Counted from the stretch's first letter, positions 38,931-58,536 are shown. The stretch is DNA of 64,000 bases from a virus (IMGVR_UViG_3300006149_000003); one strand, 5' to 3'. The notes: generated by a model not told the origin, from the letters alone. Made by a program: numbers and translations.

Positions 38931-38968
38931 CTATTCTTATTACAGAGGCAATTCAAATCTTGCTAACC
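38931..38968 (-). promoter_or_regulatory. promoter-like module copy 1 (minus-strand consensus GGTTAGCAAA-N13-15-CTGTAATAAGAATAG)
   Basis: Plus CTATTCTTATTACAG-N14-CTTGCTAACC; precedes the MTase-helicase gene. Confidence 0.6.
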
Positions 38969-38982
38969 ATGAAAGAGTAATT

Positions 38983-39258
38983 TTATTCGTCCTGATACAT
39001 TCCGCGTTCTTTATATAACTTGTTGCACTCACGGAAGTGGATGATATAGAGAATACTAATTTTATCCCCGACTTCAAGCTCAGGGAAGAATTTGGAGTCC
39101 AACTCGCATGAGGTTTTAACATTCATCATCCTAACGTGAGGAACACTTATCCTGCCTCCACATTTATCAACTGCATATTTTTCAATACAGTCAAAACCAA
39201 GTGTATTGGCAGCTTCCGCTGCCTTGACAGACTTTTCAGAAAACTCTTTAAGTTTCAC
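38983..39258 (-). CDS. hypothetical protein
   Basis: 91 aa; module/terminator bounded cassette. Confidence 0.4.
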   Translation of the reverse strand: MKLKEFSEKSVKAAEAANTLGFDCIEKYAVDKCGGRISVPHVRMMNVKTSCELDSKFFPELEVGDKISILYIIHFRECNKLYKERGMYQDE

Positions 39259-39296
39259 GCTAACACCTCCATAAAAGGACTGTTTTGTCTGTCTTT

Positions 39297-39572
39297 TCAG
39301 GCATCATCTCGGCATAATTTCCAATATGCCTCAAAATCGTCACCCTCCTCGTTCTCCCAAGAATCTCCTACCTGCCCATTGCGATATTGGCACACATCGA
39401 ACATATTGTAATCCACATCGTCGTTAAGTAAATCACTGTCTGCGATAGCGTCCGCAAGACGCACGGCCTGGTCAATATCCTTAACAGGGAAAATAGTCTC
39501 ATGCCCGTTCCGGATATAGATAAGAGTAAGCTGAACATTCATATCAATACCTCCATTTTTAATACAAAGCAA
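39297..39572 (-). CDS. hypothetical acidic protein
   Basis: 91-aa cassette gene. Confidence 0.4.
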   Translation of the reverse strand: MLCIKNGGIDMNVQLTLIYIRNGHETIFPVKDIDQAVRLADAIADSDLLNDDVDYNMFDVCQYRNGQVGDSWENEEGDDFEAYWKLCRDDA

Positions 39573-39590
39573 AGCGGAACTTTGCTAACC
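39553..39590 (-). promoter_or_regulatory. promoter-like module copy 2 (variant)
   Basis: CCATTTTTAATACAAAG-N11-TTTGCTAACC. Confidence 0.45.
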
Positions 39591-40457
39591 AATCTCACTG
39601 GTATATTTTTGAGTGACCTTTGCAACTGCCTCTAAAAAGCGCTCCCACTCCAGATTATACTCTTCAGTGGCCCAATGGTGATACTGCCGAATCATAGGCC
39701 AGACCGTAGTAGCAACTTGGGTGCTGTTCAGATGCTTTACCAACTGAACAAAATTAGTGATCTGCAACCACGCTCTATTCCTTATTACAATAGCACCCCA
39801 AGAATCCGCATAGATGAACTTTTCCGGTCTTAGAACGCCAAAATATTTCTTCATGTAGTACGACGTTGGCTTCCCAATATCATCCGCTGGTGGCCTCCAC
39901 ATCTGACTGAAATAGTCACTGTGGTTAATGTAAAGATCGTCACCACTTAAAAACAGTTGACACTGGCTTTTCCCATCGAAAGGAACAGATGCAAATTTCC
40001 GTATCCCTTTCAGTTCCTGCGGCTTTTGTACCTTCTTGCCAGAGCAAAGCACTGTATACTCCGATGTTGGGAAAATGAACTCTTTACAGAAGTTATCGGG
40101 AGTGGTCAATGTGAATGTGACCGGCACAACAAGCGCCCCGTTTTTCCATAGTTGGTACTTACAGAAGTCGTACCATACACCATCGCTGGCGTCCTGATGC
40201 AGCGTAGCAATGCACGTTCCAACCGATGTATTGAACCGTAGCACATGGACGATGGAACCTTTACGTTCCATCGTCTTGTGCTCATCCGCGCTGGCAAGCA
40301 TTTTGTTGATGTACTCTATATGGGATTGATCGTGACACTCGGAGATTTTGGCGTTCGGATAATGCTCCTGAGCCACCTCCATAGTGGGGTAATATAGCTT
40401 CAGAAACGTACCGTCTTCCGCCATAATTGTGAACCGTTTCAAAATAAACACCTCCAA
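39585..40457 (-). CDS. hypothetical protein
   Basis: 290 aa; annotated start is TTG, true start probably a few codons in. Confidence 0.4.
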   Translation of the reverse strand: MEVFILKRFTIMAEDGTFLKLYYPTMEVAQEHYPNAKISECHDQSHIEYINKMLASADEHKTMERKGSIVHVLRFNTSVGTCIATLHQDASDGVWYDFCKYQLWKNGALVVPVTFTLTTPDNFCKEFIFPTSEYTVLCSGKKVQKPQELKGIRKFASVPFDGKSQCQLFLSGDDLYINHSDYFSQMWRPPADDIGKPTSYYMKKYFGVLRPEKFIYADSWGAIVIRNRAWLQITNFVQLVKHLNSTQVATTVWPMIRQYHHWATEEYNLEWERFLEAVAKVTQKYTSEIG

Positions 40458-40500
40458 TTCTTATTCCTATTTACAGGCAGAAAACGGAGTTTGCTAACCT
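40457..40500 (-). promoter_or_regulatory. promoter-like module copy 3
   Basis: AATTCTTATTCCTATTTACAG-N14-TTTGCTAACC. Confidence 0.55.
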
Positions 40501-40853
40501 ATTTCCAGATAGAAAGTTCCTCGTCCAGAAAAATCCCAAGCGTTCCCTCCGTAATCCCATAGGTCTGATCTTTCATGCCTACCTCCGCATGGGTATGAGC
40601 AATCCGCAATCTGGTAGGCGGACGGTCGAATCCGAGGGAAGAATGGTATATCCCGTTAAGTCGGGCCAGTGCCTGAAGAAAATCTCCCATCCCAGCGACA
40701 TTTTTCAAGCTGTCCAGAATTTCCTCCCAGGTGTTTTCACAGTAGTCGCTTGATCCCATCCGTTCCAACTCGGTCTTGTCACCATTGATTTCCTCAGAGA
40801 CATAATATTTGCCACTTTGCGGGGAGTAAAAGTAAATCTGCCGTCGTGTCATG
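40499..40853 (-). CDS. hypothetical protein
   Basis: Start MTRRQIYFY with GGAGG SD; the longer ORF-track version overlaps the upstream gene. Confidence 0.4.
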
Positions 40854-40865
40854 ATAAAACCTCCA

Positions 40866-43255: not shown

Positions 43256-43293
43256 CATTCTATATAACTGAATGAAACCATTGTTTGCTAACC
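43256..43293 (-). promoter_or_regulatory. promoter-like module copy 4
   Basis: CATTCTATATAACTG-N13-TTTGCTAACC. Confidence 0.5.
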
Positions 43294-43550: not shown

Positions 43551-43588
43551 CCATTACTATTACAGAAAAAGGGGAGAGGTCTGCTAAC
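43551..43588 (-). promoter_or_regulatory. promoter-like module copy 5
   Basis: CATTACTATTACAG-N15-CTGCTAACC. Confidence 0.55.
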
Positions 43589-43607
43589 CTCTCCCCAAAA
43601 CTTTTTG

Positions 43608-43847
43608 TTAGTCGTACTTGAAGTTCTCACGTCCGATATACTCACCATTCGCATAGTCCTCATCGACATAGCCGGAGTACCAGACCAGCTCACCGTGCTG
43701 CTCCGTCAGCTCGCCCAGCTTTTCCATGCAGTCGCTCTCATCGTTACTGCCGACTGTTACCTCGAAGTCATCCACGAACCGCCCACACATTCTGAACGGC
43801 TCCAGGATTGCGCTCTTGATGTCGGAAATGGTGTTATAATAAATCAT
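43608..43847 (-). CDS. hypothetical protein
   Basis: Start MIYYNT with AGGAGG SD. Confidence 0.4.
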   Translation of the reverse strand: MIYYNTISDIKSAILEPFRMCGRFVDDFEVTVGSNDESDCMEKLGELTEQHGELVWYSGYVDEDYANGEYIGRENFKYD

Positions 43848-43860
43848 CAGTTGTATCCTC

Positions 43861-44079
43861 CTAAATTTCACTTCTGTAAACAGTGAAGTCGTAGCTGTTG
43901 TCCGTCACCTCCTCCACCCACAACTGGCAGGTGGCGTCGTTGCCGTACTTATCCCAGGCGGTGTGCTCCGCTTCCTCCTGGCTGTCGGCCAACACCACAC
44001 CGCAACGTTTCCCGATATGCTCATCGGTACGGCGGTGGCACACAGTCATACAGAAGAAGAAAATCTTTTTACCGCTCAT
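43861..44079 (-). CDS. hypothetical protein
   Basis: 72 aa. Confidence 0.35.
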   Translation of the reverse strand: MSGKKIFFFCMTVCHRRTDEHIGKRCGVVLADSQEEAEHTAWDKYGNDATCQLWVEEVTDNSYDFTVYRSEI

Positions 44080-44161
44080 TCTGCCGTCCTTCCTCCCCGT
44101 ATAGCCGATAGGACAGCCTCATTGTATCAAACATCCAACTCATTTGCAAGGGTGCAGGCTC

Positions 44162-44199
44162 CTATTATATTTACGAATCGTTCTAAAATCTTGCTAACC
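44162..44199 (-). promoter_or_regulatory. promoter-like module copy 6
   Basis: CTATTATATTTACG-N15-TTGCTAACC. Confidence 0.55.
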
Positions 44200-44208
44200 A
44201 AAAATTAC

Positions 44209-44237
44209 AGGCGAGGTGGAGAAAATCTGCCTCGCCT
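44209..44237 (-). terminator. intrinsic terminator of the DUF932 gene
   Basis: AGGCGAGG-loop-CCTCGCCT hairpin followed on the minus strand by a T-run. Confidence 0.6.
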
Positions 44238-44245
44238 GTTTTATT

Positions 44246-45181
44246 TTACTTTGTGCCCACCCCTGCCAACAGAGAGGCCATCTTGTCCATCATAGCGTGA
44301 CCATCCATGATACGGCCCCAGTTGTTCTCCCGATAGTTGGCCGTCTGGCGGCGCGGTGCGTTGTGGCTGACCATATCGCTCATGGCATTCAGTGCTCCCC
44401 ATGCAGTCCCCATGAACTTGGCGATGTCAGGAGCGAAGTAGCAGACCATGTACTCGTCCTTGACCTTTTTGGCGTTCCGCTTCTCGCGGTCGCTCATATC
44501 TTCCGTCACGGGGAACATCTCGTCCAGAATGGCCTTGATCCGCTCGTCGGTGACGGTGGTGTTCGCCATCTGATCGGCATACTCACCCAGCCCGTCCATG
44601 TACTTATTCGCCATGTCCAAACAGACTCGCGCCTCATGGAGCTTGGCCTGAATGTCACCAGTGTGACGGACAGCCCAAGCGCGTTTCGCACTGTTCAGCG
44701 CGAAGTTGAGTGTGTTGTTGCAGACCACCCGAATAGGTGTCATACAGACCCTAATAGCGCCGCTCCCGTCATGGGTGTTGGTGAAGCACAGGTAAGGCTC
44801 CGTCTTGTCTCCCACAATCTCCGTCTCCGGCAGCTTCGCCAGCAGCCAGATCTTCTTGCCACCCTGCAAACTGCCCGCCGTCTCGTAGTGAACCTCACCG
44901 TCAATCAGGGAGTCCGTAAAGGCGAATGCCTCCGCATTCTGAACAATACGATAGCGGTCGGTCACGACACCCAGCACAGCGCCGTCACTGCTCCGCACAT
45001 TGGCCTTGTAGTTGACGATCTTCGCCCCACCACAGACCTGGATGTTCTTCTTGTCCACAGTCCAGTCCAGACCAGCCAGCCGCAGAGCGTCGGCGCTGGT
45101 GGGCGCTTCCTCAACCATCGTGCCCAGACCGTGCCAGGGCTTCTCACGAACGTACATCATAGTTTCAACATTAGCTGCCAT
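44246..45181 (-). CDS. DUF932 / TIGR03299-type phage/plasmid-related protein
   Basis: KPWHGLG, LLAKLP, FTNTHDGSGA, RVVCNNTL family hallmarks. Confidence 0.6.
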   Translation of the reverse strand: MAANVETMMYVREKPWHGLGTMVEEAPTSADALRLAGLDWTVDKKNIQVCGGAKIVNYKANVRSSDGAVLGVVTDRYRIVQNAEAFAFTDSLIDGEVHYETAGSLQGGKKIWLLAKLPETEIVGDKTEPYLCFTNTHDGSGAIRVCMTPIRVVCNNTLNFALNSAKRAWAVRHTGDIQAKLHEARVCLDMANKYMDGLGEYADQMANTTVTDERIKAILDEMFPVTEDMSDREKRNAKKVKDEYMVCYFAPDIAKFMGTAWGALNAMSDMVSHNAPRRQTANYRENNWGRIMDGHAMMDKMASLLAGVGTK

Positions 45182-45221
45182 TTTGCAAACCTCCTAAATT
45201 TTGTAGTGTGGTGAACAGGTA

Positions 45222-45258
45222 CATTCTTATAGCAGTCAGAAAATCAGTTTTGCTAACC
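45222..45258 (-). promoter_or_regulatory. promoter-like module copy 7
   Basis: CATTCTTATAGCAG-N13-TTTGCTAACC. Confidence 0.55.
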
Positions 45259-45283
45259 ACAAAGAAAAATTTACTCCTCCAAT

Positions 45284-45700
45284 TTATTTGTTGCTCTCGT
45301 ATACTGCCAGCACTTTCGGAAACAACTCCTGACGCCACTTGTAGAAATCTTCCACCAGGGCAAGCGCATCCTCCCTGCACAGCTCCAAAAACTCGTTGTT
45401 AATTCCGGCCTCACTGTCATCATTGCGTACTGCTTGGATGTACAGCTCCAGATTGTCCACATCCTCACAGAAGCGGCGCTCATTGCACAGCTTGCATACC
45501 TCATCCAGTGTCCAGCCGTTTTCCTTGCAGGCCAGCCAGTCATCCTCGGTGAAATCCATCACAGATCCCACGCTCCCGTGGTAGTCCTGAATTGCCCAGG
45601 GTAGCCCCTCATCGGTGTACCGCCAATCCAGCCTGCCATAGCGCTTGGTATACTCGGCCTTGGTATCTTCAATCTTCTTGCGCAGCGTGTTCTTCTCCAT
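45284..45700 (-). CDS. hypothetical protein
   Basis: 138 aa, GGAGG SD. Confidence 0.4.
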   Translation of the reverse strand: MEKNTLRKKIEDTKAEYTKRYGRLDWRYTDEGLPWAIQDYHGSVGSVMDFTEDDWLACKENGWTLDEVCKLCNERRFCEDVDNLELYIQAVRNDDSEAGINNEFLELCREDALALVEDFYKWRQELFPKVLAVYESNK

Positions 45701-45735
45701 GGTTGAACCTCCTTTTGCAGTAGGCTTGCCGCCTC

Positions 45736-45773
45736 CTATTCTTTTGACAGCAAAAATGTGTCGTTTGCTAACC
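45736..45773 (-). promoter_or_regulatory. promoter-like module copy 8
   Basis: CTATTCTTTTGACAG-N13-TTTGCTAACC. Confidence 0.55.
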
Positions 45774-45784
45774 GTTCAGAAAAA

Positions 45785-46291
45785 TTATTCTGTCCAGCAA
45801 TTTTCTACACAGAAAGAAAACCGTGTACAGCTACCGCCAACTGTACTAACCACCATCCGATCTGCCTTGTTCATAATGGCGGTCAGCATAGCCGTCTCAT
45901 CCTTGTTAAACGCAGCTACACTACTCACATCCAAAAAGAGAATAGCGTTCTTTTCGTACTGGTTGGGCTTAATCTCTTCCAGCTTTCGCACATCACCACA
46001 GCGTTGAAGAAACTTGGTCAGCCCCGCCTTGATCTCCTGGAACAGCCGCAGCTTGTCAAAATCAGCCCGCTTTCCATTGAAATTTTCGTTTCGCTGATAC
46101 ATCGCCTCAATCTCCTCTGGGGAGTAGGCCAGCGTTCTCCGCAGTTCCGTTACACCAATACGATCTAACGCCTCATCCTCGGCACAGTTGAGTTGATGCG
46201 CCACATCAGCGGTAGAAATCTCTCCGGCCAGATAGCCCAGCCGGAGAGAGTCAATGTCAACACGTTTCTGCAAATCCCATTTCTTTTTCAC
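45785..46291 (-). CDS. hypothetical protein
   Basis: 168 aa. Confidence 0.4.
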   Translation of the reverse strand: MKKKWDLQKRVDIDSLRLGYLAGEISTADVAHQLNCAEDEALDRIGVTELRRTLAYSPEEIEAMYQRNENFNGKRADFDKLRLFQEIKAGLTKFLQRCGDVRKLEEIKPNQYEKNAILFLDVSSVAAFNKDETAMLTAIMNKADRMVVSTVGGSCTRFSFCVENCWTE

Positions 46292-46470
46292 TGCGTCTTC
46301 CTCCTCATATCCATGTACTCTTTATAGCTCACTCCCATGAGGTCAGCGGCAGCGTGGAGCGCCGTTTTCTTGTCGGCCAGCGGGCCGGCGGCTACCTTGG
46401 GAGACTCGACTTTATGGGGATACCAGCGAGAGCTACCCTTCTGTTTGGACACATCATAGGTAATCTGCAT
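46288..46470 (-). CDS. hypothetical small protein
   Basis: 60 aa, translationally coupled. Confidence 0.3.
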   Translation of the reverse strand: MQITYDVSKQKGSSRWYPHKVESPKVAAGPLADKKTALHAAADLMGVSYKEYMDMRRKTQ

Positions 46471-46480
46471 TTTACACTCC

Positions 46481-47211: not shown

Positions 47212-47241
47212 TGTGTAGCCTCCTCATAATTTTTAGTGCCT

Positions 47242-50268: not shown

Positions 50269-50274
50269 TTGCAT

Positions 50275-50460: not shown

Positions 50461-50471
50461 TTCGCTCCTCC

Positions 50472-51055: not shown

Positions 51056-51057
51056 CT

Positions 51058-51096
51058 CCTATTTATATAACAGCTTTAATTTTCCTTGTGCTAACC
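51058..51096 (-). promoter_or_regulatory. promoter-like module copy 14
   Basis: CTATTTATATAACAG-N15-TGCTAACC. Confidence 0.55.
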
Positions 51097-51280
51097 ACTA
51101 AAGCAAAAAAAGCGGGCAGGGACAAACCCCACCCGCAAAAAAATCACTCCTCATCGTCACTGGCCGGCTCATATGTGTCGCACCCGTCAGCAGAAATATT
51201 GATTGCCTCTCCACCATAGCCACATTTTCCACACCAGAAAAACTCGCAATCAGTACGGCTACACATAACTTCTTGCATTT

Positions 51281-51585
51281 TTACACCTCCATTCCACGAT
51301 TAAACTTTTCCTGGTCAATTACACAGCAGATCGCGCTCATAGCGTCCATAAGTTCCATGACACAACTGTCTCCCACCTCTTTCTCTCGCATTCTTTCAGA
51401 CCAGCGGCTATACAGCATCACCGTCATATCCCGCACATTCTGAAGCTCAATGTCATTGCGGGACTTGATTTCCAGCGTGGACATGATCTTCTCTGCCTCC
51501 GCTCCGCTCACGATGCCTCTCTGTGTCGGCCTATACGCCTCTTTCAATTCCATGATGGCGTGAAAATCGGTCTTTGTTGTCATAT
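51281..51585 (-). CDS. hypothetical protein
   Basis: Start MTTKTDF after AGGAGGTG. Confidence 0.4.
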
Positions 51586-51595
51586 TCGACACCTC

Positions 51596-51936
51596 CTAAA
51601 AGTTTTCACATCGTTTGGCGTTACATCCCAGCCACAGCGCGGCCTGCTTCCAGATTGCGTCATGTCCGTGGTTTTTGTTATGCACCTTTGTGACATAAAG
51701 ATGAGCGTATTCGTGCCGAATAACATTGATTATATGTTCCACCGCTCCATGCTCCATCAGCCGCTCCGCAAACACAAGCTCCTTGATGTAATACTTCTGA
51801 CCTTTTCGTTGCCAGCAGCACTTGCCCCATGTTCTCGTCATTCTGGACGATATGCGAATTGGTACTTCACTGGTATCCAGGCCAGAAATTTTATCCAGCC
51901 GGTTCATTTCTTCACGAATGATACTTGTGTCCATGC
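51596..51936 (-). CDS. SprT-like zinc metalloprotease domain protein
   Basis: HEYAHL (HExxH) plus downstream His; start MDTSII after GGGAGGTG. Confidence 0.45.
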
Positions 51937-51946
51937 CGACACCTCC

Positions 51947-51983
51947 CATTGATATAACATCCAGATTTATGTATCTGCTAACC
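51947..51983 (-). promoter_or_regulatory. promoter-like module copy 15
   Basis: CATTGATATAACAT-N14-CTGCTAACC. Confidence 0.5.
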
Positions 51984-52034
51984 GAACACAAAAAAAACGG
52001 GGAGAAAGTTTTATCTCTCTCCCCGTTGTCCGTT

Positions 52035-52334
52035 CTACACCGCAGCCTGCTCCTGCCGCAGCTTCCAGTTGTTCATACGCTCCCGCTCCATCTTCATCGC
52101 CTCCACGTGGCCCGCCGCAGCCCTCGCAGCCCACCTCGCAGCCCGCTTGGGGTTGCGGGACTGCGCCTTGGCGTTGACCGTCTGTGCCTCTCCCCAAGAC
52201 GGGATGCCAGCCGCACGATGACGGCGATACTCCGCCTTGGTGATCTCCACCGCACCGTCCAGGATGTCCAGCCGCGTCGCATGGGCAACAAACTTCTGCC
52301 CGTTCTTCTCGCCGATCATGTACTGCTTCTTCAT
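52035..52334 (-). CDS. hypothetical basic protein
   Basis: 99 aa, Arg/Ala-rich C-terminus. Confidence 0.35.
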   Translation of the reverse strand: MKKQYMIGEKNGQKFVAHATRLDILDGAVEITKAEYRRHRAAGIPSWGEAQTVNAKAQSRNPKRAARWAARAAAGHVEAMKMERERMNNWKLRQEQAAV

Positions 52335-52375
52335 GTTGTGTTCCTCCGTTTTATTTTTTTTGTTGGGATGTCTCC

Positions 52376-52413
52376 CATTCTTTTTTACAGGTGAATAAAT
52401 CCGCTTGCTAACC
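52376..52413 (-). promoter_or_regulatory. promoter-like module copy 16
   Basis: CATTCTTTTTTACAG-N14-CTTGCTAACC. Confidence 0.55.
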
Positions 52414-52458
52414 TATCACATAAAAAAAGCGGGCCAGCTTTTCGCCAGCCCGCTCACA

Positions 52459-52890
52459 TCATTCACACCACGCCTTTTTCCGTCCGGTACTTGAATACCA
52501 GGGATGATAGTCAAACTCGCCCCGCTTATTGGAGAGAAACCGGCGCAGCCGCTCTTTATCTTCCCGCCCCATCCAGCAAGTCAAGTTCGGATTGTCCCAT
52601 CTCCCATTGTGCCGCTCCTTGCGTAGCATGGACTTTACAGCGGCAATCAACCAATCTTGGTTAATATCCAGCATATCACAGACAGTAGCCAGACTCCAGC
52701 CGATCTGCCTGGAGCGCTCGGCCAATTCGCCCAGCCGATACGCCTCAGAGCCTCCCAGCGTTGAAACCCAGAGGTAAGCATCAGGGGAATACCCCTTGTT
52801 TTTCCGAACTTCCAAATTATACTTCTTACCCTCTGCCTCAGCATCGAAAAGCTCACATACGAGAGACACCAATTTTTCAACATCGTACAT
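52459..52890 (-). CDS. hypothetical protein
   Basis: 143 aa. Confidence 0.4.
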   Translation of the reverse strand: MYDVEKLVSLVCELFDAEAEGKKYNLEVRKNKGYSPDAYLWVSTLGGSEAYRLGELAERSRQIGWSLATVCDMLDINQDWLIAAVKSMLRKERHNGRWDNPNLTCWMGREDKERLRRFLSNKRGEFDYHPWYSSTGRKKAWCE

Positions 52891-52941
52891 ACCAATACCT
52901 CCATTATTATATAGCAGTTTTGTGTTGGCTTCTATTACTAT

Positions 52942-52979
52942 TACAGAGAATTTTCAGGTTTTGCTAACCGTCAAAATAA
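52942..52979 (-). promoter_or_regulatory. promoter-like module copy 17
   Basis: CTATTACTATTACAG-N13-TTTTGCTAACC. Confidence 0.6.
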
Positions 52980-53017
52980 AAAAGTTTTGGCCGGGAGAAA
53001 TCCCGGCCTCCACCTTA

Positions 53018-53776
53018 TCAGCTATTCGCTTCCCGCATATATTCCCGTCTCGCGGCCCAATATGCTTTCCTTTGCGTCTCCGTGAAATGCAGCTCGTCAA
53101 AATACTGCTCAACCTCGTTTTCATCGTGGCCGTGGTACTGAATATTGCCGAACGCGCTCAGGGTATCCCAGTCCGCCTGCCAGTTGATTGCATACTCGTG
53201 ATTTGCCATCTCGTACTTAAAAGCGGACTTCCAATACTCAAAATTGTCTCCCATAGCGTCCCGCGCCGCTTCCAGCCGCTGGAAAAGTGCAATGTGTTCC
53301 CGTACAAAATCGGCGTTGGTGTAGTAGGCAAAACCGACAGGATTGAAAATCATCGTGGCGATTTTCTTCTTGCGCTCCTCTACCTCCTGCTTTGTGCCTC
53401 CGGCGTCAAATAGGGAGATGTTGTCCTCCTGCATCCCGTAGTAGTTATGGAGATATCTGCTTCGGCGCTCGTATTCAGCATAATCCGACAGGGGAGAGGC
53501 GATTTCCTCCAGCGTAAAGAGAATGTTGCCCAGCTTCTCCACATAAACCTCCCGCAGCTGCTTCTGCGTTGCTTTCCTCCACTTGTGATGTAGCTCGTAG
53601 TCGTTCGCGTAGTAAATATGGTGGCCGTTCTTGAATACCAGACAGCTATACCCGAAGTAGCCGCCGAAGTCCACCAGATAAACCGTGTGCCCCTTTACGT
53701 CCAGCTTTTCCAGCGCGATAGCGGCGGCATCCGTTTCCGTCATGGCCTGAATCATGTCGATTGTGTAGTTTTTCAT
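53018..53776 (-). CDS. hypothetical protein
   Basis: Start MKNYTID after AAGGAGGG. Confidence 0.4.
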   Translation of the reverse strand: MKNYTIDMIQAMTETDAAAIALEKLDVKGHTVYLVDFGGYFGYSCLVFKNGHHIYYANDYELHHKWRKATQKQLREVYVEKLGNILFTLEEIASPLSDYAEYERRSRYLHNYYGMQEDNISLFDAGGTKQEVEERKKKIATMIFNPVGFAYYTNADFVREHIALFQRLEAARDAMGDNFEYWKSAFKYEMANHEYAINWQADWDTLSAFGNIQYHGHDENEVEQYFDELHFTETQRKAYWAARREYMREANS

Positions 53777-53801
53777 TTTTAGCCCTCCTTGCGGCAAAAC
53801 T

Positions 53802-53839
53802 CTATTGTTATTACAGAGCGTTTCCGGCGTTTGCTAACC
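53802..53839 (-). promoter_or_regulatory. promoter-like module copy 18
   Basis: CTATTGTTATTACAG-N13-TTTGCTAACC. Confidence 0.6.
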
Positions 53840-53856
53840 ATTCAGAAATAAAAATA

Positions 53857-53880
53857 GGGCGCTCCGTCTCCAGAGCGCCC
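53857..53880 (-). terminator. intrinsic terminator
   Basis: GGGCGCTC-CGTCTCCA-GAGCGCCC preceded by an A-run on the plus strand. Confidence 0.55.
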
Positions 53881-53886
53881 ACAAAT

Positions 53887-54033
53887 TTAATCGTCATCTT
53901 CATCATGTAAAGAACAGCTGCACCAGCATTGCGTTTCTTCCTCATAATATTCACTTAAAGGATTTTCACATACTCCAGCCGTTACATCCCACTCCCGTTC
54001 TCTGTTCCAGCATGGACAGTCTCTACATAGCAT
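53887..54033 (-). CDS. small Cys-rich protein (48 aa), not in ORF track
   Basis: AGGAGG SD then ATG: MLCRDCPCWNREREWDVTAGVCENPLSEYYEEETQCWCSCSLHDEDDD. Confidence 0.35.
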   Translation of the reverse strand: MLCRDCPCWNREREWDVTAGVCENPLSEYYEEETQCWCSCSLHDEDDD

Positions 54034-54186
54034 AAAAATCCTCCTTTACTATGACAAACTGAATTTTCAAAAGCTCCTCAATCGTTCCGTTCCTCAGAAC
54101 CTTCCGATTTTTCGCCTCGATCTCCTTGGCCTCCGCCTCAGTAATCTCTTTATCGCCGATGAAGTATTGCTTCAATCTTTCGCCTC

Positions 54187-54223
54187 CATTACTATTACAG
54201 GATGAAATGGGTATTTGCTAACC
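54187..54223 (-). promoter_or_regulatory. promoter-like module copy 19
   Basis: CATTACTATTACAG-N13-TTTGCTAACC. Confidence 0.6.
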
Positions 54224-54265
54224 GTTTCTAAAAAATAGCCGGGGAATTTTCTCCCCGGCCAGCGC

Positions 54266-54826
54266 TCACAGATAGATTGCCAGCATAGTTTCAGCCTCTG
54301 CAATCTCCTTTCTCGTGCGCTCCAATGCGTTCCGTTCACACTCTATACCGTGAATCCATCCCTCAGACTCCGACTCGGCCAGGTCTGCTAAAATATCCTC
54401 TAACGCCTCTTGCAAATCGGCAATCTTTGCGCGGTAACGGCGGATACGCTGCTCCAGCTTCTCCGGCGCATTCTCCCGCGCCCACGCCGCCCATTTGCGC
54501 TTGCGCTCCATGCGCTCCTCAGCTTCCTGACGCTTCTCCTCAGCGTGGCGACGACCTGCATCCTCAGCCTCAGCCGGTGTAAATCCAAAAGTAATCTGCC
54601 CGCAGCCATTCAGTTTGGAGTAATTCAAGAAAACTTTCCTCCCGCTCCACTCCAATGTATAGTAATTGTGGCGGTAATAGTCTCCCTGAAACTGAGCAAC
54701 CATCGTGGTATGTTTTTCCATCTTTTCGATGCAGATGGCCGTCTGCTTCCGTGACAGCCACATACCCTTATTTGTGCCGGCTCGCTCCAAGAGTGAAGGA
54801 AGAAATGTGTCATAAAACCAATTCAT
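54266..54826 (-). CDS. hypothetical protein with basic/acidic coiled-coil C-terminus
   Basis: 186 aa; AGGAGG SD. Confidence 0.4.
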   Translation of the reverse strand: MNWFYDTFLPSLLERAGTNKGMWLSRKQTAICIEKMEKHTTMVAQFQGDYYRHNYYTLEWSGRKVFLNYSKLNGCGQITFGFTPAEAEDAGRRHAEEKRQEAEERMERKRKWAAWARENAPEKLEQRIRRYRAKIADLQEALEDILADLAESESEGWIHGIECERNALERTRKEIAEAETMLAIYL

Positions 54827-54860
54827 TATGTATGCCTCCTGATTTGAAATTTTGTGTCCT

Positions 54861-54898
54861 CTATTCTTATTACAGCGCTAAAATATGTTTTGCTAACC
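54861..54898 (-). promoter_or_regulatory. promoter-like module copy 20 (exact consensus)
   Basis: CTATTCTTATTACAG-N14-TTTTGCTAACC. Confidence 0.65.
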
Positions 54899-54940
54899 AT
54901 GAAAAAGAAAAAGCGGCGGGAATATTCCCGCCGCTACCGT

Positions 54941-55270
54941 TCACACTGCCAGACTAACCCGAATTGCCTGATTGACCTGCTCCTGCGTGTCCGTATCAAT
55001 CCGTCCCAGATGTCTACCCAGACGGCGCTTGTCAATCGTTCTGATCTGTTCCAGTTCCACAAAAGACGGGCGCTGGAGACAGTGCAAATTTACGTGCGTG
55101 GGGAACCTGGACTTGCGCATCCGGCTACTAATCGGCGCAATAATCACCGTGGGCGAATAGGTGTTCCCTGTGTTGTTTTGGATAACCAGCACTGGCCTAA
55201 CTCCGCCTTGCTCACTGCCCCCCGATACCGTCAAATCCGCCATGTAGATTTCTCCGCGTTTGACTTCCAT
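54941..55270 (-). CDS. mazF: MazF/EndoA (PemK-family) endoribonuclease toxin
   Basis: Near-collinear with B. subtilis EndoA: MEVKRGEIYMADL..GSEQGGVRPVLVIQN...PTVIIAPISS...ELEQIRTIDKRRL. Confidence 0.8.
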   Translation of the reverse strand: MEVKRGEIYMADLTVSGGSEQGGVRPVLVIQNNTGNTYSPTVIIAPISSRMRKSRFPTHVNLHCLQRPSFVELEQIRTIDKRRLGRHLGRIDTDTQEQVNQAIRVSLAV

Positions 55271-55527
55271 TATTGTAGCCTCCTTCCGTCCCAAATGACA
55301 TTAAATTGAACCCGTGGCCGCTCGATCATGTAGCACCAGCTATCCGCGTGCGCCTCATCCGCCGCCTGCATTTTGGGGATATACATTCCATCATCCACCT
55401 CGAAAATAGCGATCCAGCCGTCGTTCATTGTGGCGAACGCATAGTCAATCCCGTTGAAATGCTTGCGGACTACATGACCCGTTCCGTTTTCGGCTACCCA
55501 CTTTTCAAAGCCGTTCCTATCCAGCAT
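55270..55527 (-). CDS. hypothetical protein translationally coupled to mazF (candidate non-canonical antitoxin)
   Basis: 85 aa; its TAA overlaps the mazF ATG (TAATG); not RHH/AbrB-like. Confidence 0.4.
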   Translation of the reverse strand: MLDRNGFEKWVAENGTGHVVRKHFNGIDYAFATMNDGWIAIFEVDDGMYIPKMQAADEAHADSWCYMIERPRVQFNVIWDGRRLQ

Positions 55528-55564
55528 GATTGCACCTCCGATTGTTTCAGACTTATTGCCCGTT

Positions 55565-55602
55565 CTATTCTTATTACAGGCGATTTCCCGCCTTTGCTAA
55601 CC
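55565..55602 (-). promoter_or_regulatory. promoter-like module copy 21
   Basis: CTATTCTTATTACAG-N14-CTTTGCTAACC. Confidence 0.65.
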
Positions 55603-55824
55603 ATTCCGACAAAAAAATAACGGCGGGAAAATTCCCGCCGTTCAGCTGTTCCGCTATCATACCTCCCGATATACGCAGCCCGTCCAGACCTGTTCCGTAG
55701 TACCAGGGCATCCGTCCACCGCACGACCAAGCCGCTTGCACCTCCAGCAAATGCTGTTGAGCTTTTCCAGGCCACCCAGCCAATCCACAGAGCGGATATA
55801 ATCGCAGATGTCCGGGTTATAGTC

Positions 55825-56010
55825 CTACTCCAAAATGTACTTGCACAGCGCGGCCTGTACTTGAGCGTTGTTTCTGGCATTCATCGCCCGTGTAATCTCT
55901 CCGCCTATGTAATATCCAAAAATTCTCTGCTCCTCCATGCAGTAGTTATAGAAGTCTTTCGCGTCATACGGTTCGCCGTCCTTACGGTCAAGAATCCTGT
56001 CAACGATCAT
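55825..56010 (-). CDS. hypothetical small protein
   Basis: Start MIVDRIL preceded by the ACAAAATTCAAGGAGG leader. Confidence 0.35.
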   Translation of the reverse strand: MIVDRILDRKDGEPYDAKDFYNYCMEEQRIFGYYIGGEITRAMNARNNAQVQAALCKYILE

Positions 56011-56042
56011 TTTGTGTTCCTCCTTGAATTTTGTTTTGGCCT

Positions 56043-56080
56043 CTGTTATAATTACAGAAAGATTTTCCGCTTTGCTAACC
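56043..56080 (-). promoter_or_regulatory. promoter-like module copy 22
   Basis: CTGTTATAATTACAG-N13-TTTGCTAACC. Confidence 0.6.
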
Positions 56081-56423
56081 AATCCATCAAATTTTCCAGG
56101 GGACAAAAAAATGAGATTATACGATAATCCATGGATGGCCGTTACCTATCTATTAGGTGCAAGCGCTAAAGGCTTAAAGAATTGCCTCCAAAATGCCATT
56201 GATAAAAGAGATGATAGAAAAGAATCCGAATCCAGAGCGAACCTTCCCACAAATGACCAGGAGCGCAAACGATATAACGCAACACACAAACGACGGGAAA
56301 GGGGAGCCACAATTTCCCTTGTGGCATCCGTTTAATACCATCCATTCTTTATGGCCTCTGGTATTCCTTTTTTGGCAAATACTGAAATGAAAAAAGGCGG
56401 GGAATTTCCCCGCCTCCGTTCCT

Positions 56424-56774
56424 TTATGCGCAAAATGTCAACAGCTTTTTCATGTTATACCGGCCTGCGACCTCCAGTTTTTCCTCCGTCCGTCCTCCTA
56501 CAACCTGCCACGCTTCACCGTTCTTTTTCCGTGTGAACGTCTCCGCGATATACTCGCCCGTTCCATCATAGTGCTTGAAGTAGTAAACGCGGCGGATTGT
56601 CTGCTCCGTCTCCGTCTCCGCTATAACCTTTTGAAAGGCCGGGTACTCGTTCCCGTAGGCGGGATTGTAGAGGTAGTTTGCGATGTCGAACTTGTAGCCG
56701 TTCGGCGCTTCCAGCTTCCGGATTTTGTTTATGTATTCCGGTTTGAGATTTCTTGCCATGTTCGTAACCTCCAA
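56424..56774 (-). CDS. hypothetical protein
   Basis: 116 aa. Confidence 0.4.
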   Translation of the reverse strand: MEVTNMARNLKPEYINKIRKLEAPNGYKFDIANYLYNPAYGNEYPAFQKVIAETETEQTIRRVYYFKHYDGTGEYIAETFTRKKNGEAWQVVGGRTEEKLEVAGRYNMKKLLTFCA

Positions 56775-56795
56775 AAATTTGTTGTGGGCGTTGCC

Positions 56796-56834
56796 TCTAT
56801 TCTTATTACAGCCCCTTTTCCCGTTCTGCTAACC
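56796..56834 (-). promoter_or_regulatory. promoter-like module copy 23
   Basis: CTATTCTTATTACAG-N15-CTGCTAACC. Confidence 0.6.
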
Positions 56835-56894
56835 GTTTCAAAAAATCTTTTTGAGATGACAAAAGGCCGGGGATAATTCCCCGGCCCGCCGTCT

Positions 56895-57116
56895 TTATGC
56901 CTCCAGAATCGCCTTGATTGTCTCATCCGTCGTGATGATCTCCCGATTGTAGAGACTGAGCGCCCGCGCCACGTTGCGGAATTTTTCGGCCTTGTGTTCC
57001 TCTTTCATCAGAGTATTTCCCGCTATCCGCTCCATAACATCGGCGGCATAGTCCAGCACAAACTTTTTCATGTGTTCAACTCCTTCCATGTTCAGCGGGC
57101 GGACACCTCGCAGCAT
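56895..57116 (-). CDS. hypothetical protein
   Basis: 73 aa. Confidence 0.35.
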   Translation of the reverse strand: MLRGVRPLNMEGVEHMKKFVLDYAADVMERIAGNTLMKEEHKAEKFRNVARALSLYNREIITTDETIKAILEA

Positions 57117-57137
57117 CCGCCCGCCGTTTCTGTTCTG

Positions 57138-57497
57138 TTAGATGAAGTACATCTCGCCGTTGATTTCCAGCGCGACGGCCTCTTGTCCCATCTCCTGCTT
57201 CAGCGCCTCGCAGTGATCGACCACGGCGGCGATCCCGTTCTGCAAATCCGCATCGCTGGCGTAGGCGAAAACAACGGTGGTATTCTCAGCGACCAGGCCG
57301 GCCACGGGAGAGAGCCAATAGCCCAGCGCGGCGGTAGAGGTGGAGCCGCCGAAAAGATCGGCCAGCAGCGCGGCGGTTTTCTTCACCTGTTCCGTATTGT
57401 CGGCGGCGTCGGCCACTCCGTTTGTGGCGGGCACGTAAACGGTAACTTTGCTGGAGAGCTTGATGCAGGCTTTCAGTTTGGCGTTGTTGATAGTCAT
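57138..57497 (-). CDS. hypothetical protein
   Basis: 119 aa. Confidence 0.4.
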   Translation of the reverse strand: MTINNAKLKACIKLSSKVTVYVPATNGVADAADNTEQVKKTAALLADLFGGSTSTAALGYWLSPVAGLVAENTTVVFAYASDADLQNGIAAVVDHCEALKQEMGQEAVALEINGEMYFI

Positions 57498-57558
57498 GAT
57501 ATGTAACCCCTTTCAATTTTTGGGGGAGCCGGTGGTGGTGATTTCCACCGGCCCGCCC

Positions 57559-57597
57559 TTTATTCTAATTACAGCTTGATTTTGTTCGTTGCTAACC
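57559..57597 (-). promoter_or_regulatory. promoter-like module copy 24 (spacer carries AACGAACAAAATCAAG leader motif)
   Basis: TTTATTCTAATTACAG-CTTGATTTTGTTCG-TTGCTAACC. Confidence 0.55.
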
Positions 57598-57613
57598 TAA
57601 ATTTGAAATTTTT

Positions 57614-58405
57614 TCAGGCAATCCCGACGTTCTGGAGAGCCGCCCGGATTTTCACAATCCGCTTGTGTACGGCCACATTGGAGATTTTGACAACATCGGC
57701 GATCTGGCGTTCCGTATAATTCTCTTGCACAAGCTCGATGATCTTCCGGTCGATCTCATCCCGTCCAGCCGTGAACCGTTCCAGATCGGCCCGGATGATG
57801 GCGCTTGTCTCCGTGTTCACAGAGCCGCCCGCGCTTACTCTCGTTTCAATGTAGCTTTCGATCTCGCCGTTATCGTTCATGATCTCAGGGTCTTGCACTG
57901 CGCGGCCATGTTTCCGGTCATCTTCCCAGATTTTCATAATGGCAGCTTTTGCGGCGTTGTAGACAAGGGACTTCAGGGAGCGCGGGCGCAACCCTTTAGC
58001 GGCGCGGCGCTCGTTGGTGATGGGCAGACGGTCAAAGGCATCGAACAGCCTGCAGTATGCCTCATCGGTGAACTCGTCGAACTGGTGCCCACGCAGCCCC
58101 CAGGCGGCGCACTCGTTGAACTGGTGATAGTGATCTTCAGTGCTGTAGCCGATAACGTCTTTCGCGGCCCGCACGACACAGCGCTGGAGCCATTCAACTT
58201 GCTTTTCGGGAGTGGTAGCGGCCCACTCAGCGACCACGGCGGCGGCGTTGATCTCAGCGTTGACGCCTTCAGCCTCGGCCCACGCCTGCTTCAGACACAG
58301 AGAAAAAACGACCTCGGAAACCTTGCAACCCATTTCAGCGGCGGCGCTTTTGCGGATAGCCCAGGCACGGCCCATAATGGCGGAGAGATTGAAAGACTTT
58401 TTCAT
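57614..58405 (-). CDS. phage-encoded sigma-70-family (ECF-like) sigma factor
   Basis: C-terminal region-4 HTH: DEIDRKIIELVQENYTERQIADVVKISNVAVHKRIVKIRAAL; start MKKSFNL. Confidence 0.6.
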   Translation of the reverse strand: MKKSFNLSAIMGRAWAIRKSAAAEMGCKVSEVVFSLCLKQAWAEAEGVNAEINAAAVVAEWAATTPEKQVEWLQRCVVRAAKDVIGYSTEDHYHQFNECAAWGLRGHQFDEFTDEAYCRLFDAFDRLPITNERRAAKGLRPRSLKSLVYNAAKAAIMKIWEDDRKHGRAVQDPEIMNDNGEIESYIETRVSAGGSVNTETSAIIRADLERFTAGRDEIDRKIIELVQENYTERQIADVVKISNVAVHKRIVKIRAALQNVGIA

Positions 58406-58506
58406 AATATGTATACCCCTTTGCAATGATTTTATTCGCCCTTAAAGGGAAGGAGCACGACGGCAAAAGCCGCCCGGACTGCCCACCCCCCTTTTGGGTA
58501 TACCCT

Positions 58507-58536
58507 ATTATACCATATCCTTTTCCAGTTTGTCAA
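58507..58536 (-). promoter_or_regulatory. sigma-A consensus promoter for the sigma-factor gene
   Basis: Minus strand CGAACAAAATCG-TTGACA-18 nt-TATAAT. Confidence 0.55.

Follow-up and report, generated by a model that had tools for sequence, protein, structure and literature searches.

The minus-strand array of two-box modules that runs from position 57597 down to 38931 of this phage sequence (64,000 nt, the whole of which is called the window here) raises the question of what reads the modules. Sigma cascades in phages are textbook knowledge, and the sequence-only reading had proposed that host RNA polymerase makes a phage sigma factor, which then fires the array. This model is supported in every part open to computational testing, and we give a probability of about 70% to the explanation that a phage sigma factor reads its own two-box promoters, which serve 24 insulated cassettes. 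Most likely, the locus encodes a divergent sigma factor carried by a large temperate phage of gut Oscillospiraceae; the window would be a portion of such a phage or prophage from Oscillospiraceae-type Clostridia.

Box 1, GGTTAGCAAA, matched the window 30 times with at most one mismatch, compared with 4.1 matches expected, and this count was equalled in 0 of 100 shuffles of the window. Box 2 gave 19 matches with at most three mismatches (1.5 expected). When both boxes were demanded, 24 modules remained, all on the minus strand, which confirms that the array is real. The two boxes had been called almost invariant, which is true of box 1, with GGTTAGCA unchanged in 24/24 modules, but of box 2 only the CTGTAA core is well kept (at most one mismatch in 19/24); the other 9 nt are variable, with 0-7 mismatches across all 15 nt. 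The spacer between the boxes is 13 nt in 22 modules and 14 nt in two, and the distance from GTTAGCA to TAATAA, given earlier as 17 nt, was recounted as 18 nt. Nine genomes together supplied 133 modules, in which the information content is 1.7-2.0 bits per position for GGTTAGCAA and tCTGT; 127 of these modules have a 13-nt spacer. The bipartite arrangement with fixed spacing that characterizes a cognate-type promoter is thus present in the 24 modules of the window, listed below, and in more than 200 modules of relatives.

57560..57597, minus: module 1, beginning 17 nt past the stop codon of the sigma-like gene; the phage-specific motif ACGAACAAAATCAA forms its spacer, with a conserved hairpin after it
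56797..56834, minus: module 2, box 2 perfect
56043..56080, minus: module 3
55565..55602, minus: module 4, perfect, driving the putative antitoxin and MazF
54861..54898, minus: module 5, perfect; its cassette is missing in L001, a 98% identical relative
54186..54223, minus: module 6, its end adjoined by a Shine-Dalgarno sequence
53802..53839, minus: module 7
52932..52969, minus: module 8
52376..52413, minus: module 9
51946..51983, minus: module 10, box 2 core ATGTTA, driving the SprT-like gene
51059..51096, minus: module 11, driving the DarA_C gene
50188..50225, minus: module 12, spacer containing the 14-nt motif variant AACAACAAAATCAA
49325..49363, minus: module 13, spacer 14 nt
48992..49029, minus: module 14
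47900..47937, minus: module 15, driving a Zn-ribbon protein
47242..47279, minus: module 16
45736..45773, minus: module 17
45221..45258, minus: module 18, box 2 core CTGCTA, driving DUF932
44162..44199, minus: module 19, box 2 core TCGTAA
43551..43589, minus: module 20, spacer 14 nt and holding the terminator T-run; box 1 in the loop of the upstream hairpin
43256..43293, minus: module 21, box 2 weak
40462..40499, minus: module 22
39553..39590, minus: module 23, box 2 weak
38931..38968, minus: module 24, box 2 perfect, driving the MTase-helicase

The suggestion that most genes are followed by a terminator holds in part: a hairpin of -10 kcal/mol or stronger with a T-run lies within 55 nt upstream of 16/24 modules, not of all, and box 1 is enclosed by a hairpin in one further module (module 20). 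The suggestion of one module per small gene had to be abandoned, as the 24 modules compare with about 43 ORFs in a rough ORF call, and 2-5 genes are present in several cassettes. The start codon lies 5-84 nt downstream of the module, except for module 20, which is 364 nt away by the script's assignment or else lies inside an alternative ORF (43298-43693). The cargo named previously (MazF/PemK, SprT-like, DUF932, Zn-ribbon and MTase-helicase proteins) was confirmed by domain matches, and a DarA_C domain was found in addition. In the first cassette lies the gene for a conserved protein, phrog_3543.

43571..56887, minus: span of the intrinsic terminators (GC hairpin and T-run), which end 10-30 nt upstream of modules
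56887-56864, 55642-55619, 54935-54912, 54261-54236, 53880-53857, minus: first five terminator stems
53008-52989, 52455-52427, 52027-51996, 51136-51112, 50270-50241, minus: next five stems
49071-49046, 47990-47957, 47319-47292, 44239-44207, 43596-43571, minus: remaining five stems
54941..55270, minus: MazF/PemK toxin (PF02452, E 9e-33)
55270-55527: presumed antitoxin, an 85-aa ORF upstream of MazF
51596..51934, minus: SprT-like metalloprotease domain protein (PF10263, E 5e-15)
50678..51046, minus: DarA_C "defence against restriction" domain protein (PF18789, E 1.5e-23)
44246..45181, minus: DUF932 protein (E 4e-59)
35794..38847, minus: N6-methyltransferase fused to a ResIII/DEAD helicase, cargo of module 24

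The sigma-like gene, which had been described as the last of the block, is the first in the direction of transcription.

57614..58405, minus: gene of the divergent sigma-like protein, 263 aa

Its product was claimed to be a sigma-70-family protein with a region-4 HTH. The HTH is present, and the model TIGR02937 (sigma70-ECF) matched residues 105-259 over model positions 24-163 of 165 with an E value of 5e-7, as it did in 25/28 family members; however, none of the curated thresholds for Pfam Sigma70_r2/r4 or TIGR02937 was reached, the TIGR02937 score of 29.4 bits falling short of the cutoff of 42.9. In the profile search that had been proposed as a check, Sigma70_r4_2 scored 17.3 bits (E 4e-3), below its cutoff of 25.7, and Sigma70_r2 matched none of the 28 family members. 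PHROG 1740, "sigma factor", was matched with an E value of 4.5e-6, and hhalign against E. coli RpoE aligned the HTH alone. The N-terminus carries a Gp111/AcrIIA3-N-like domain (about residues 1-60) and a helix (66-84), followed by a middle domain whose fold resembles sigma-2 (about 100-166) and a C-terminal sigma-4 domain (about 199-260) with the HTH of regions 4.1-4.2, the part that in sigma-70 family members reads the -35 element. The helix ISNVAVHKRI of this HTH is invariant, which parallels the invariance of box 1.

The perfect host-type promoter reported ahead of the sigma-like gene stood up, with 12/12 consensus positions and an upstream TG, and it is kept in relatives at 9-12 of 12; relatives also have a box-1-like sequence upstream of the gene. 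The array genes do differ in this respect: all five strong sigma-A-type promoters of the window (11 or 12 of 12 consensus positions; 0.6 expected) lie outside the array, and the weaker 9-10/12 matches on the array strand include no module. Upstream control of the sigma-like gene probably involves the immunity switch, included below as context.

58507..58536, minus: TTGACA-18-TATAAT sigma-A-type promoter of the sigma-like gene, TG-extended
58536..58549, minus: ACGAACAAAATCGT, a near-palindromic operator-like site adjoining the -35 hexamer
58426..58439, minus: GCGAATAAAATCAT, second copy of the phage-specific 14-nt motif, directly 5' of the ribosome-binding site of the sigma-like gene
34253..35434, plus: immunity switch
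34253 (plus) and 34347 (minus): divergent sigma-A promoters of the switch
34294 and 34357: palindromic ACGAA-N4-TTCGT sites of the switch
34405-34770: XRE/RstR-like repressor
34835-35434: ImmA/IrrE protease
59595-60434: tyrosine recombinase, divergent and adjoining the array

The search of related genomes that had been called for showed that the modules and the sigma-like gene co-occur. The comparison covered nine genome loci and 21 viral loci, with homologs of 49-98% identity. All but L036 have their first module no more than about 60 nt from the stop codon; in L036 it is about 550 nt away by strict criteria, and a variant module is found about 40 nt after the stop. The 21 viral loci have 6-19 modules per 10 kb downstream of the gene (fewer where the sequence is shorter), with a total of two upstream and one on the opposite strand, and the distribution in the nine genome loci is similar. 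Among the IMG/VR contigs with at least two exact modules, 20/25 encode the sigma-like protein, and in the remaining five the array extends to the sequence edge. No array was recognisable at the locus of a distant homolog (L037, 33% identity). Box 1 is constant among relatives and so carries no information on covariation between sigma and promoter.

Relatives also bear on where transcription starts and on how the cassettes move. Counted from the C of CTGTAA, the Shine-Dalgarno core begins at an offset of 13-14 in 58/199 cassettes and earlier in 1/199. This boundary fits the distance of 6-9 bp between element and start measured for the sigma factors of phages phiEco32 and 7-11 (PMC8948821). In comparisons of the window with L001, L015 and L016, the breakpoints of indels and order swaps fall on modules or terminators: one entire cassette of the window (54941-54232) is exchanged for 216 bp in L001, and two cassette pairs are in swapped order in L015 and L016. 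These three pairwise comparisons suggest recombination at the modules.

We therefore suggest, as the reading preferred above, that host sigma-A RNA polymerase transcribes 57614-58405 from the consensus promoter, which in a lysogen would probably be silenced by the XRE-type repressor through the operator adjoining the -35 hexamer. The product would be an ECF-like two-domain sigma (sigma-2 and sigma-4) with an extra N-terminal domain. On host core polymerase, its sigma-4 HTH (ISNVAVHKRI) may take GGTTAGCAAA as the -35 element, and its sigma-2 domain may take (t)CTGTAA, exactly 13 nt on, as the -10 element. Transcription is predicted to begin at most about 7 nt past CTGTAA, where the module ends in the A/T-rich "...ATAG", often just 1-2 bases ahead of the Shine-Dalgarno sequence. 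The 24 promoters, mostly fused to the terminator of the preceding unit, would divide 18.7 kb into insulated cassettes of 1-5 genes, many apparently of the anti-defence or host-takeover type (DarA_C, SprT-like, DUF932, MazEF, MTase-helicase). The cassettes may be exchangeable by recombination because each is bounded by the same sequence of about 40 nt, so that they could be gained, lost and reordered while correct expression is kept.

It could be proposed instead that the protein is an HTH activator (LuxR/GerE- or sigma-4-like) rather than a sigma factor, binding box 1 and recruiting sigma-A holoenzyme to a weak -10-like hexamer within box 2, which is AAGAAT in the window and TATAGT or TATAAT in relatives. 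We regard this as unlikely. The middle domain has a sigma-2-like fold, the ECF model aligns from end to end, and the invariant CTGT of box 2 is not explained by sigma-A. A -10 element at AAGAAT or TATAGT would also place the start inside or past the Shine-Dalgarno sequence in the 58 cassettes with the offset of 13-14, and the 22-nt gap between box 1 and the hexamer is excessive for a sigma-A -35/-10 pair. It is less probable still that the modules are promoters read by a host alternative sigma, or by a polymerase or factor that the phage encodes beyond the window, with the sigma-like gene having a different target. The link between protein and modules is our inference, and synteny by itself is compatible with another phage-encoded factor, such as could lie in a phage that possibly reaches 70-138 kb, of which 64 kb is visible; the conserved phrog_3543 protein of the first cassette also leaves room for this. 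However, the array adjoins the sigma-like gene in about 30 loci with 0 counterexamples, the invariant box 1 is matched by an invariant recognition helix, and a polymerase gene is absent from both the window and the examined relatives' 10-kb flanks.

The modules might also be RNA-level sites (processing, stability or antitermination) or recombination sites of an integron-like system, which the adjoining tyrosine recombinase and the gained, lost and permuted cassettes superficially resemble. This explanation is largely refuted and has the lowest probability. RNAalifold over the 24 modules gave 0 pairs and 0 covariation, Rfam had no match in the array, and the modules stand downstream of terminators, which speaks against a structured RNA element and leaves the RNA-only alternative raised earlier unsupported. 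The array hairpins are ordinary, unrelated terminators. The recombinase scored 39.6 bits against a cutoff of 265 for the integron-integrase model TIGR02249, as a generic tyrosine recombinase and not an IntI-type integrase would. There is no attC-like structure, because box 1 lacks an inverted partner: its inverse core occurs within 150 nt upstream of 2/24 modules and downstream of 2/24, the background rate (about 2.6 expected on each side).

As a probable phage sigma factor with its own promoters, the system follows a principle for which other phages provide precedent; the protein family and the promoter, however, are undescribed. The closest analogues are gp36 of phiEco32 and gp47 of Salmonella phage 7-11, small divergent phage-encoded ECF-like sigmas (PMC8948821; PMC12276001). 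The promoters of 7-11 are bipartite (GTAAtg-16-aCTA), and the phiEco32 element is tAATGTAtA (PMC8948821; PMC12276001), which has a TGTA core in common with box 2. As in these phages, a small divergent sigma made from a host sigma-70/sigma-A promoter would redirect core polymerase to a phage-private consensus. However, tblastn of the protein against 50,697 GenBank phage records (E 1e-5) gave no match, so that homology to gp36 or gp47 is undetectable. In those lytic Gram-negative podophages the sigma has 6-8 middle or late promoters to serve, whereas the 24 promoters here, most of them terminator-fused, would belong to an island of accessory genes in a temperate Clostridial phage, with a longer and stricter -35 element and an extra N-terminal domain in the sigma.

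The earlier mention of CGTTAGA as the SPO1 late -35 was correct: these promoters are CGTTAGA(N17-19)GATATT and are read by gp34 with gp33 (PMC3601020). SPO1, too, is a phage of a Firmicute and has its own sigma, and when GGTTAGC is set on CGTTAGA the downstream block starts after 18 nt, within the SPO1 range. The likeness to box 1 is nevertheless limited to the 5 nt GTTAG, the -10 block is CTGTAA/GTAATA and not GATATT, and SPO1 promoters serve late structural genes. The same tblastn search showed no homology to gp34, no SPO1 product has similarity to the protein, and no gp33-like co-factor was identifiable; we therefore do not assign the locus to the gp34/gp33 late system.

The promoter-early stem-loops (PeSLs) of T4-like phages combine a terminator hairpin and promoter motifs between small genes; in these lytic Gram-negative myoviruses the promoter is an early one of the host sigma-70 type (PMC2839356; PMC4122927). 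The array is similar in that terminator and promoter recur together among small genes, most of them uncharacterised, in hyperplastic regions (16/24 modules), and insertions, deletions and replacements between close relatives end at the motifs (three comparisons). It differs in its promoter, which does not resemble that of sigma-A and is linked to a phage sigma gene heading the array. Group 4 (ECF) sigmas, such as E. coli sigma-E and B. subtilis SigW, have sigma-2 and sigma-4 without sigma-3, and their promoters are bipartite with rigid spacing and a G/T-rich -10 (CGTC, TGTC, GTT). The protein resembles them in its putative sigma-2/sigma-4 architecture, rigid bipartite promoter, G/T-rich -10 and position at the head of its presumed regulon. 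Unlike them, it scores below threshold, has an N-terminal extension of about 95 residues with the Phage_Gp111/AcrIIA3-N-like domain, has no evident anti-sigma gene, and has a sigma-A-type promoter of its own that is not autoregulated.

The 14-nt motif, and this motif only, recalls the start-associated sequences of cluster K mycobacteriophages, which are 13-14-nt repeats directly 5' of some ribosome-binding sites: it is also gene-oriented and lies before the ribosome-binding site of a subset of genes. Unlike those sequences, it is also found directly next to the -35 of sigma-A promoters and makes up the spacer in two modules, and it varies between related phages, yet its three copies around the sigma gene co-vary.

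We suggest, with a probability of about 0.7, that the genes of this region are controlled by a sigma cascade, in which a host promoter drives the sigma-like gene (57614-58405, minus strand) and its product in turn serves the module promoters downstream. Host promoter, phage sigma factor and private promoters form a textbook principle, with SPO1, T4, phiEco32 and 7-11 as examples. The window carries 24 modules, all on the minus strand, from 57597 to 38931, a module being called only where box 1 and box 2 were both present. Box 1 (GGTTAGCAAA) has 30 matches with at most one mismatch in the window, compared with 4.1 expected, and none of 100 shuffles gave as many; box 2 (CTGTAATAAGAATAG) has 19 matches with at most three mismatches, compared with 1.5 expected. 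The repeated array described in the sequence-only reading is therefore real. Its view that both boxes are nearly invariant holds for box 1, whose core GGTTAGCA is unchanged in 24/24 modules, but in box 2 CTGTAA alone is well kept. The boxes are separated by 13 nt in 22/24 modules and by 14 nt in 2/24. A strong upstream hairpin (−10 kcal/mol or lower) with a T-run was found within 55 nt of 16/24 modules, and in one further module the hairpin encloses box 1 and the T-run lies inside the promoter spacer; terminator/promoter compaction of this sort is found in relatives too. About 43 ORFs were counted roughly against the 24 modules; several cassettes must then be polycistronic, and the proposal of one module per gene has to be abandoned.

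Host-type promoters are arranged differently. The window has five TTGACA-N17/18-TATAAT sites with a score of 11 or 12 out of 12 (0.6 expected); they serve the sigma-like gene, the recombinase, the immunity switch and one other gene, and none of the five is within the array. The promoter that had been assigned to the sigma-like gene is one of these sites and is conserved in relatives. In L018, L019, L020 and L026, four loci with homologs of the sigma-like gene, the TTGACA of this promoter is preceded, at a distance of 11-12 nt, by a perfect box 1 (GGTTAGCAAC/G), about 180-200 nt 5' of the gene; the box is degenerate in L008 and L009, and also in the window (CTTAATGA). This may be a module remnant or a feedback site for the sigma factor. 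The idea that TTGACA stands in register for CTGTAA after this box-1-like sequence was dropped, the register being off by 1-2 nt.

The matches of the sigma-like protein to TIGR02937 and PHROG 1740 point to a divergent, putative ECF-like sigma factor with an N-terminal extension. TIGR02937 (sigma70-ECF) aligns residues 105-259 with model positions 24-163 of 165 (E 5e-7) and is matched by 25/28 family members, and PHROG 1740 ('RNA polymerase sigma factor') covers residues 112-259 (E 4.5e-6). The earlier assignment to the sigma-70 family is supported by these profiles but not by Pfam, where Sigma70_r4_2 (17 bits), HTH_AsnC and an N-terminal Phage_Gp111 match are all sub-threshold on the protein, and region 2 (Sigma70_r2) has no match in any of the 28 members, HTH families again remaining sub-threshold. 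The sigma-2 assignment is less secure than the sigma-4 assignment. A profile search against PDB sequences matched generic HTH proteins (AsnC/LuxR-type) only, and hhalign of the family profile with E. coli RpoE aligned the HTH alone at 3% probability, a result that is uninformative with a single sequence as template. Ten short remote relatives (170-200 aa) from the exhaustive search gave only weak Pfam Sigma70_ECF/r4 matches and so provide no bridge to curated sigma families. The family comprises 262 proteins by word-indexed search and 531 cluster representatives by exhaustive search, with no match in 50,697 GenBank phage records (tblastn, E 1e-5), and its predicted recognition helix, ISNVAVHKRI, is constant. 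The N-terminal domain (58225-58405, residues 1-60), with the motif IMxRAWxIRK...CLKxAWAEA, is also found in loci L010-L014 and L038. All 28/28 members match Pfam Phage_Gp111 in this domain, and 22/28 show a weak match to the N-terminus of the AcrIIA3 family of anti-CRISPR proteins; the Gp111-like domain also stands alone in many short proteins, including some from Lachnospiraceae genomes.

The sigma-like gene and the modules occur together in relatives, as a search of related genomes, proposed in the sequence-only reading, has confirmed. Arrays follow the gene in 9 genome and 21 viral loci whose homologs are 49-98% identical to the window's protein, and the first module lies no more than about 60 nt past the stop codon in all of them except L036, where the first module by strict criteria is about 550 nt downstream, with a variant one some 40 nt past the stop. 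The viral loci have 6-19 modules per 10 kb downstream, with a total of two upstream and one on the opposite strand, and the distribution in the 9 genome loci is alike. Among 25 IMG/VR contigs with at least two exact matches to GGTTAGCAAA-N13-CTGTAA, 20 encode the sigma-like protein; in the other five the array continues past the end of the available sequence, so these are no counterexample to the linkage. In 133 pooled modules, the information content of GGTTAGCAA and tCTGT is 1.7-2.0 bits per position, and 127 have the 13-nt spacer. Box 1 is constant across the family and box 2 is variable: the window has CTGTAATAAGAATAG, most relatives have CTGTAATTATAGTAG, and L036 (49% identity) has CTGwaGATATAACaG. 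The altered box 2 of L036 is accompanied by N150D, A151S and R152H in the putative region-2.4 helix, with box 1 kept, which is an anecdote from a single locus rather than evidence. A covariation test on the more distant L037 (33% identity) found no module array and no convincing other repeated motif by k-mer counts and repeat search. This locus (IMGVR_UViG_3300012973_000028, gene 1097-1897) keeps the domain order and has the recognition helix SAPAVHKRIVK; the 10 kb downstream of the gene hold a tRNA cluster, with no GGTTAGCA modules and no obvious substitute repeated promoter. A literature search for the module motif string returned incidental primer matches only.

The position of the transcript start can be judged from the Shine-Dalgarno core, which, across 199 cassettes of the family, starts 13-14 positions from the C of CTGTAA in 58 and earlier in 1. 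Given this limit, the predicted start must lie within about 7 nt past CTGTAA, which would make CTGTAA a −10-like element, and the promoter spacing is TTAGCA-16-TGTAAT. The same boundary would exclude the AAGAAT/TATAAT-like hexamer further downstream as the −10, and an extended −10 (TGn plus hexamer) was dropped because the hexamers are inconsistent among relatives. The predicted start distance agrees with that of the phage sigmas of phiEco32 and 7-11, where 6-9 bp were measured between element and start, and the phiEco32 element tAATGTAtA has TGTA in common with CTGTAA (PMC8948821). The likeness to SPO1 noted earlier extends to GTTAG but to nothing beyond it, and there is no protein homology. 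Directly 3' of module 1 (57520-57556, minus strand) is a GC-rich hairpin, GGCCGGTGGAAATCACCACCACCGGC, with a hairpin of different sequence at the same position in L002-L009 (GCCGGCGTTCCGTTTTGCCGGC in L003, CTGGCAGTCGTTGGAATTGCCAG in L008). It may be the 5'-terminal stem-loop of the first sigma-dependent transcript, which would fit a start at the module end.

It could also be proposed that an HTH activator, and not a phage sigma, recruits the sigma-A holoenzyme to the modules, with the −10 at AAGAAT. We regard this as distinctly unlikely, since it leaves the sigma-2-like domain, the invariant CTGT and the Shine-Dalgarno boundary unexplained. That another factor reads the modules and the sigma-like protein has a different target is compatible with the synteny taken alone, and appears very improbable to us. 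Searches of the first cassettes for a co-factor or anti-sigma (PHROG, NCBIfam) gave nothing informative. A module acting at the RNA level only, which would have told against the promoter reading, gained no support and was rejected: RNAalifold found 0 pairs, and Rfam had no match in the array. An integron was rejected as well, because the recombinase scores 39.6 bits against an integron-integrase cutoff of 265 bits and box 1 has no inverted partner.

The cargo genes annotated within the cassettes include those listed here, of which the DarA_C domain protein was not named in the sequence-only reading:
MazF/PemK with a presumed antitoxin
SprT-like protein
DarA_C domain protein
DUF932 protein
Zn-ribbon protein
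methyltransferase-helicase fusion

The remaining cargo genes are mostly without a family, and the array looks like an anti-defence or host-takeover island. Compared with L001, whose sigma is 98% identical, one entire cassette (54941-54232) is replaced; compared with L015 and L016, two cassette pairs have exchanged places, and the breakpoints fall on modules or terminators. Such replacement and swapping resemble the behavior of the promoter-early stem-loops (PeSLs) of T4-like phages, for which cassette exchange with breakpoints at the motifs has been described (PMC2839356, PMC4122927). However, PeSL promoters are of the host sigma-70 type, whereas the module promoters are assigned to the phage's own sigma.

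The sigma-like protein family, with its Gp111/AcrIIA3-N-like N-terminal domain, is new, as are the module promoter consensus and a PeSL-like exchangeable accessory-gene island under a putative phage sigma in a temperate gut Clostridial phage. The cascade would define a widespread new phage sigma family with an unusually information-rich promoter in more than 200 natural instances; with a family and promoter set of this size, the sigma-promoter pair is directly testable. The pair could also be used to switch expression orthogonally in gut Oscillospiraceae and in other Clostridia, for which genetic tools are scarce. The PeSL idea, that a terminator-promoter cassette is the unit of exchange, would be extended to phage-sigma promoters and to a temperate Gram-positive phage. 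Finally, about 40 small genes would be marked as a co-regulated set, and since this set contains several known anti-restriction-type domains, its other genes are good candidates for new anti-defence functions.

A second, 14-nt motif, ACGAAYAAAATCAA, has 21 matches with at most two mismatches in the window (1.3 expected), in gene orientation, at sites including:
302, 8005, 16570, 17317, 18931, 26371, 27645, minus strand
32672, 38860, 43200, 50204, 57576, 58426, 58536, minus strand
59483, 59572, 62467, plus strand

It lies directly upstream of the −35 in three perfect sigma-A promoters, including that of the sigma gene, adjoins the Shine-Dalgarno sequence of about nine genes, and makes up the spacer in modules 1 and 12. 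Its sequence differs in each relative, and the three copies around the sigma gene co-vary. A palindromic form, ACGAw-N4-TTCGT, is present at 4/5 strong sigma-A promoters, and the two that belong to the immunity switch at 34.3 kb are among these four; the palindromic sites read ACGAACAAAATCGT and those flanking ribosome-binding sites ACGAAYAAAATCAA. At the 18931 and 58536 promoters, similar near-palindromes adjoin the −35. The ACGAAC motif was rejected as a LexA/Cheo box on spacing. The switch comprises:
34200-35434, ImmR/ImmA-type immunity switch
34253 (plus) and 34347 (minus), divergent sigma-A promoters
34294 and 34357, palindromic ACGAA-N4-TTCGT sites
34405-34770, plus strand, XRE/RstR-like repressor
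34835-35434, plus strand, Peptidase_M78/IrrE (ImmA/IrrE) protease

From this arrangement, the sigma gene may plausibly be under a repressor lock. A tentative and rather doubtful extension is a two-layer private code, in which the sigma and its 24 cassettes form an exchangeable anti-defence island gated by a phage-specific lock, the 14-nt motif. In the first layer, any gene inserted between two modules would be expressed automatically. In the second, the motif would gate the cascade at the −35 flank of the sigma-A promoter, the ribosome-binding-site flank and the spacer of module 1, and would also mark the Shine-Dalgarno flank of about nine other genes, acting as an immunity-specific lock on transcription and translation, with the XRE/RstR-like repressor or some other factor of the phage as its reader.

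Elsewhere the window carries genes for a PHROG-405 DNA polymerase, NrdD, dNMP kinase, ERF recombinase, PD-(D/E)XK nuclease, RNA ligase, a kinase, tRNAs, an XRE repressor with ImmA protease, and a tyrosine recombinase. Dysosmobacter, Butyricicoccus, Hominicoprocola and further Oscillospiraceae-type Clostridia carry close relatives in their genomes, with L003 in the cultured Dysosmobacter segnis BX15 and L005 in the cultured Hominicoprocola fusiformis CLA-AA-H269, and other close relatives lie on IMG/VR contigs as long as 138 kb. From this gene content and these relatives, the source of the window is a large temperate phage.

Several other features were observed. Between the sigma gene promoter and the recombinase gene, about 500 nt (58600-59100) have 65-67% GC and an AT skew of up to +0.76 on the plus strand, so that the minus strand is almost without A; no convincing ORF and only trivial tandem repeats were found there, and alignment with relatives is limited to the 59.0-59.6 kb flank. 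A 70-aa ORF (18674-18886, minus strand) under a perfect TTGACA-17-TATAAT promoter matches C-5 cytosine DNA methylases in their N-terminal part alone (PF00145, E 7e-15) and could be what is left of a methylase gene that was truncated or split. Three complete tRNA folds of 115-121 nt (29302-29422, 29637-29751 and 30257-30372, minus strand; Rfam 48-56 bits) were not called by ARAGORN. In the last, 49 nt are inserted into the anticodon loop, and judging by their lengths the other two have similar inserts; the three are candidates for short-intron tRNAs or for tRNA-like (Y-RNA-type) decoys. They adjoin a normal tRNA-Ser, the RNA ligase (24918-26357), an AAA_33/PNK-like kinase (22892-23812) and a DUF2828+DUF7788 protein (27661-29220; PHROG 'RNA-binding protein'). 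Among the replication and RNA-repair genes, a PAPS-reductase-domain protein (21474-22331) and a class-V, cysteine-desulfurase-like aminotransferase (26423-27568), both on the minus strand, may act together to transfer sulfur in the modification of DNA or tRNA.
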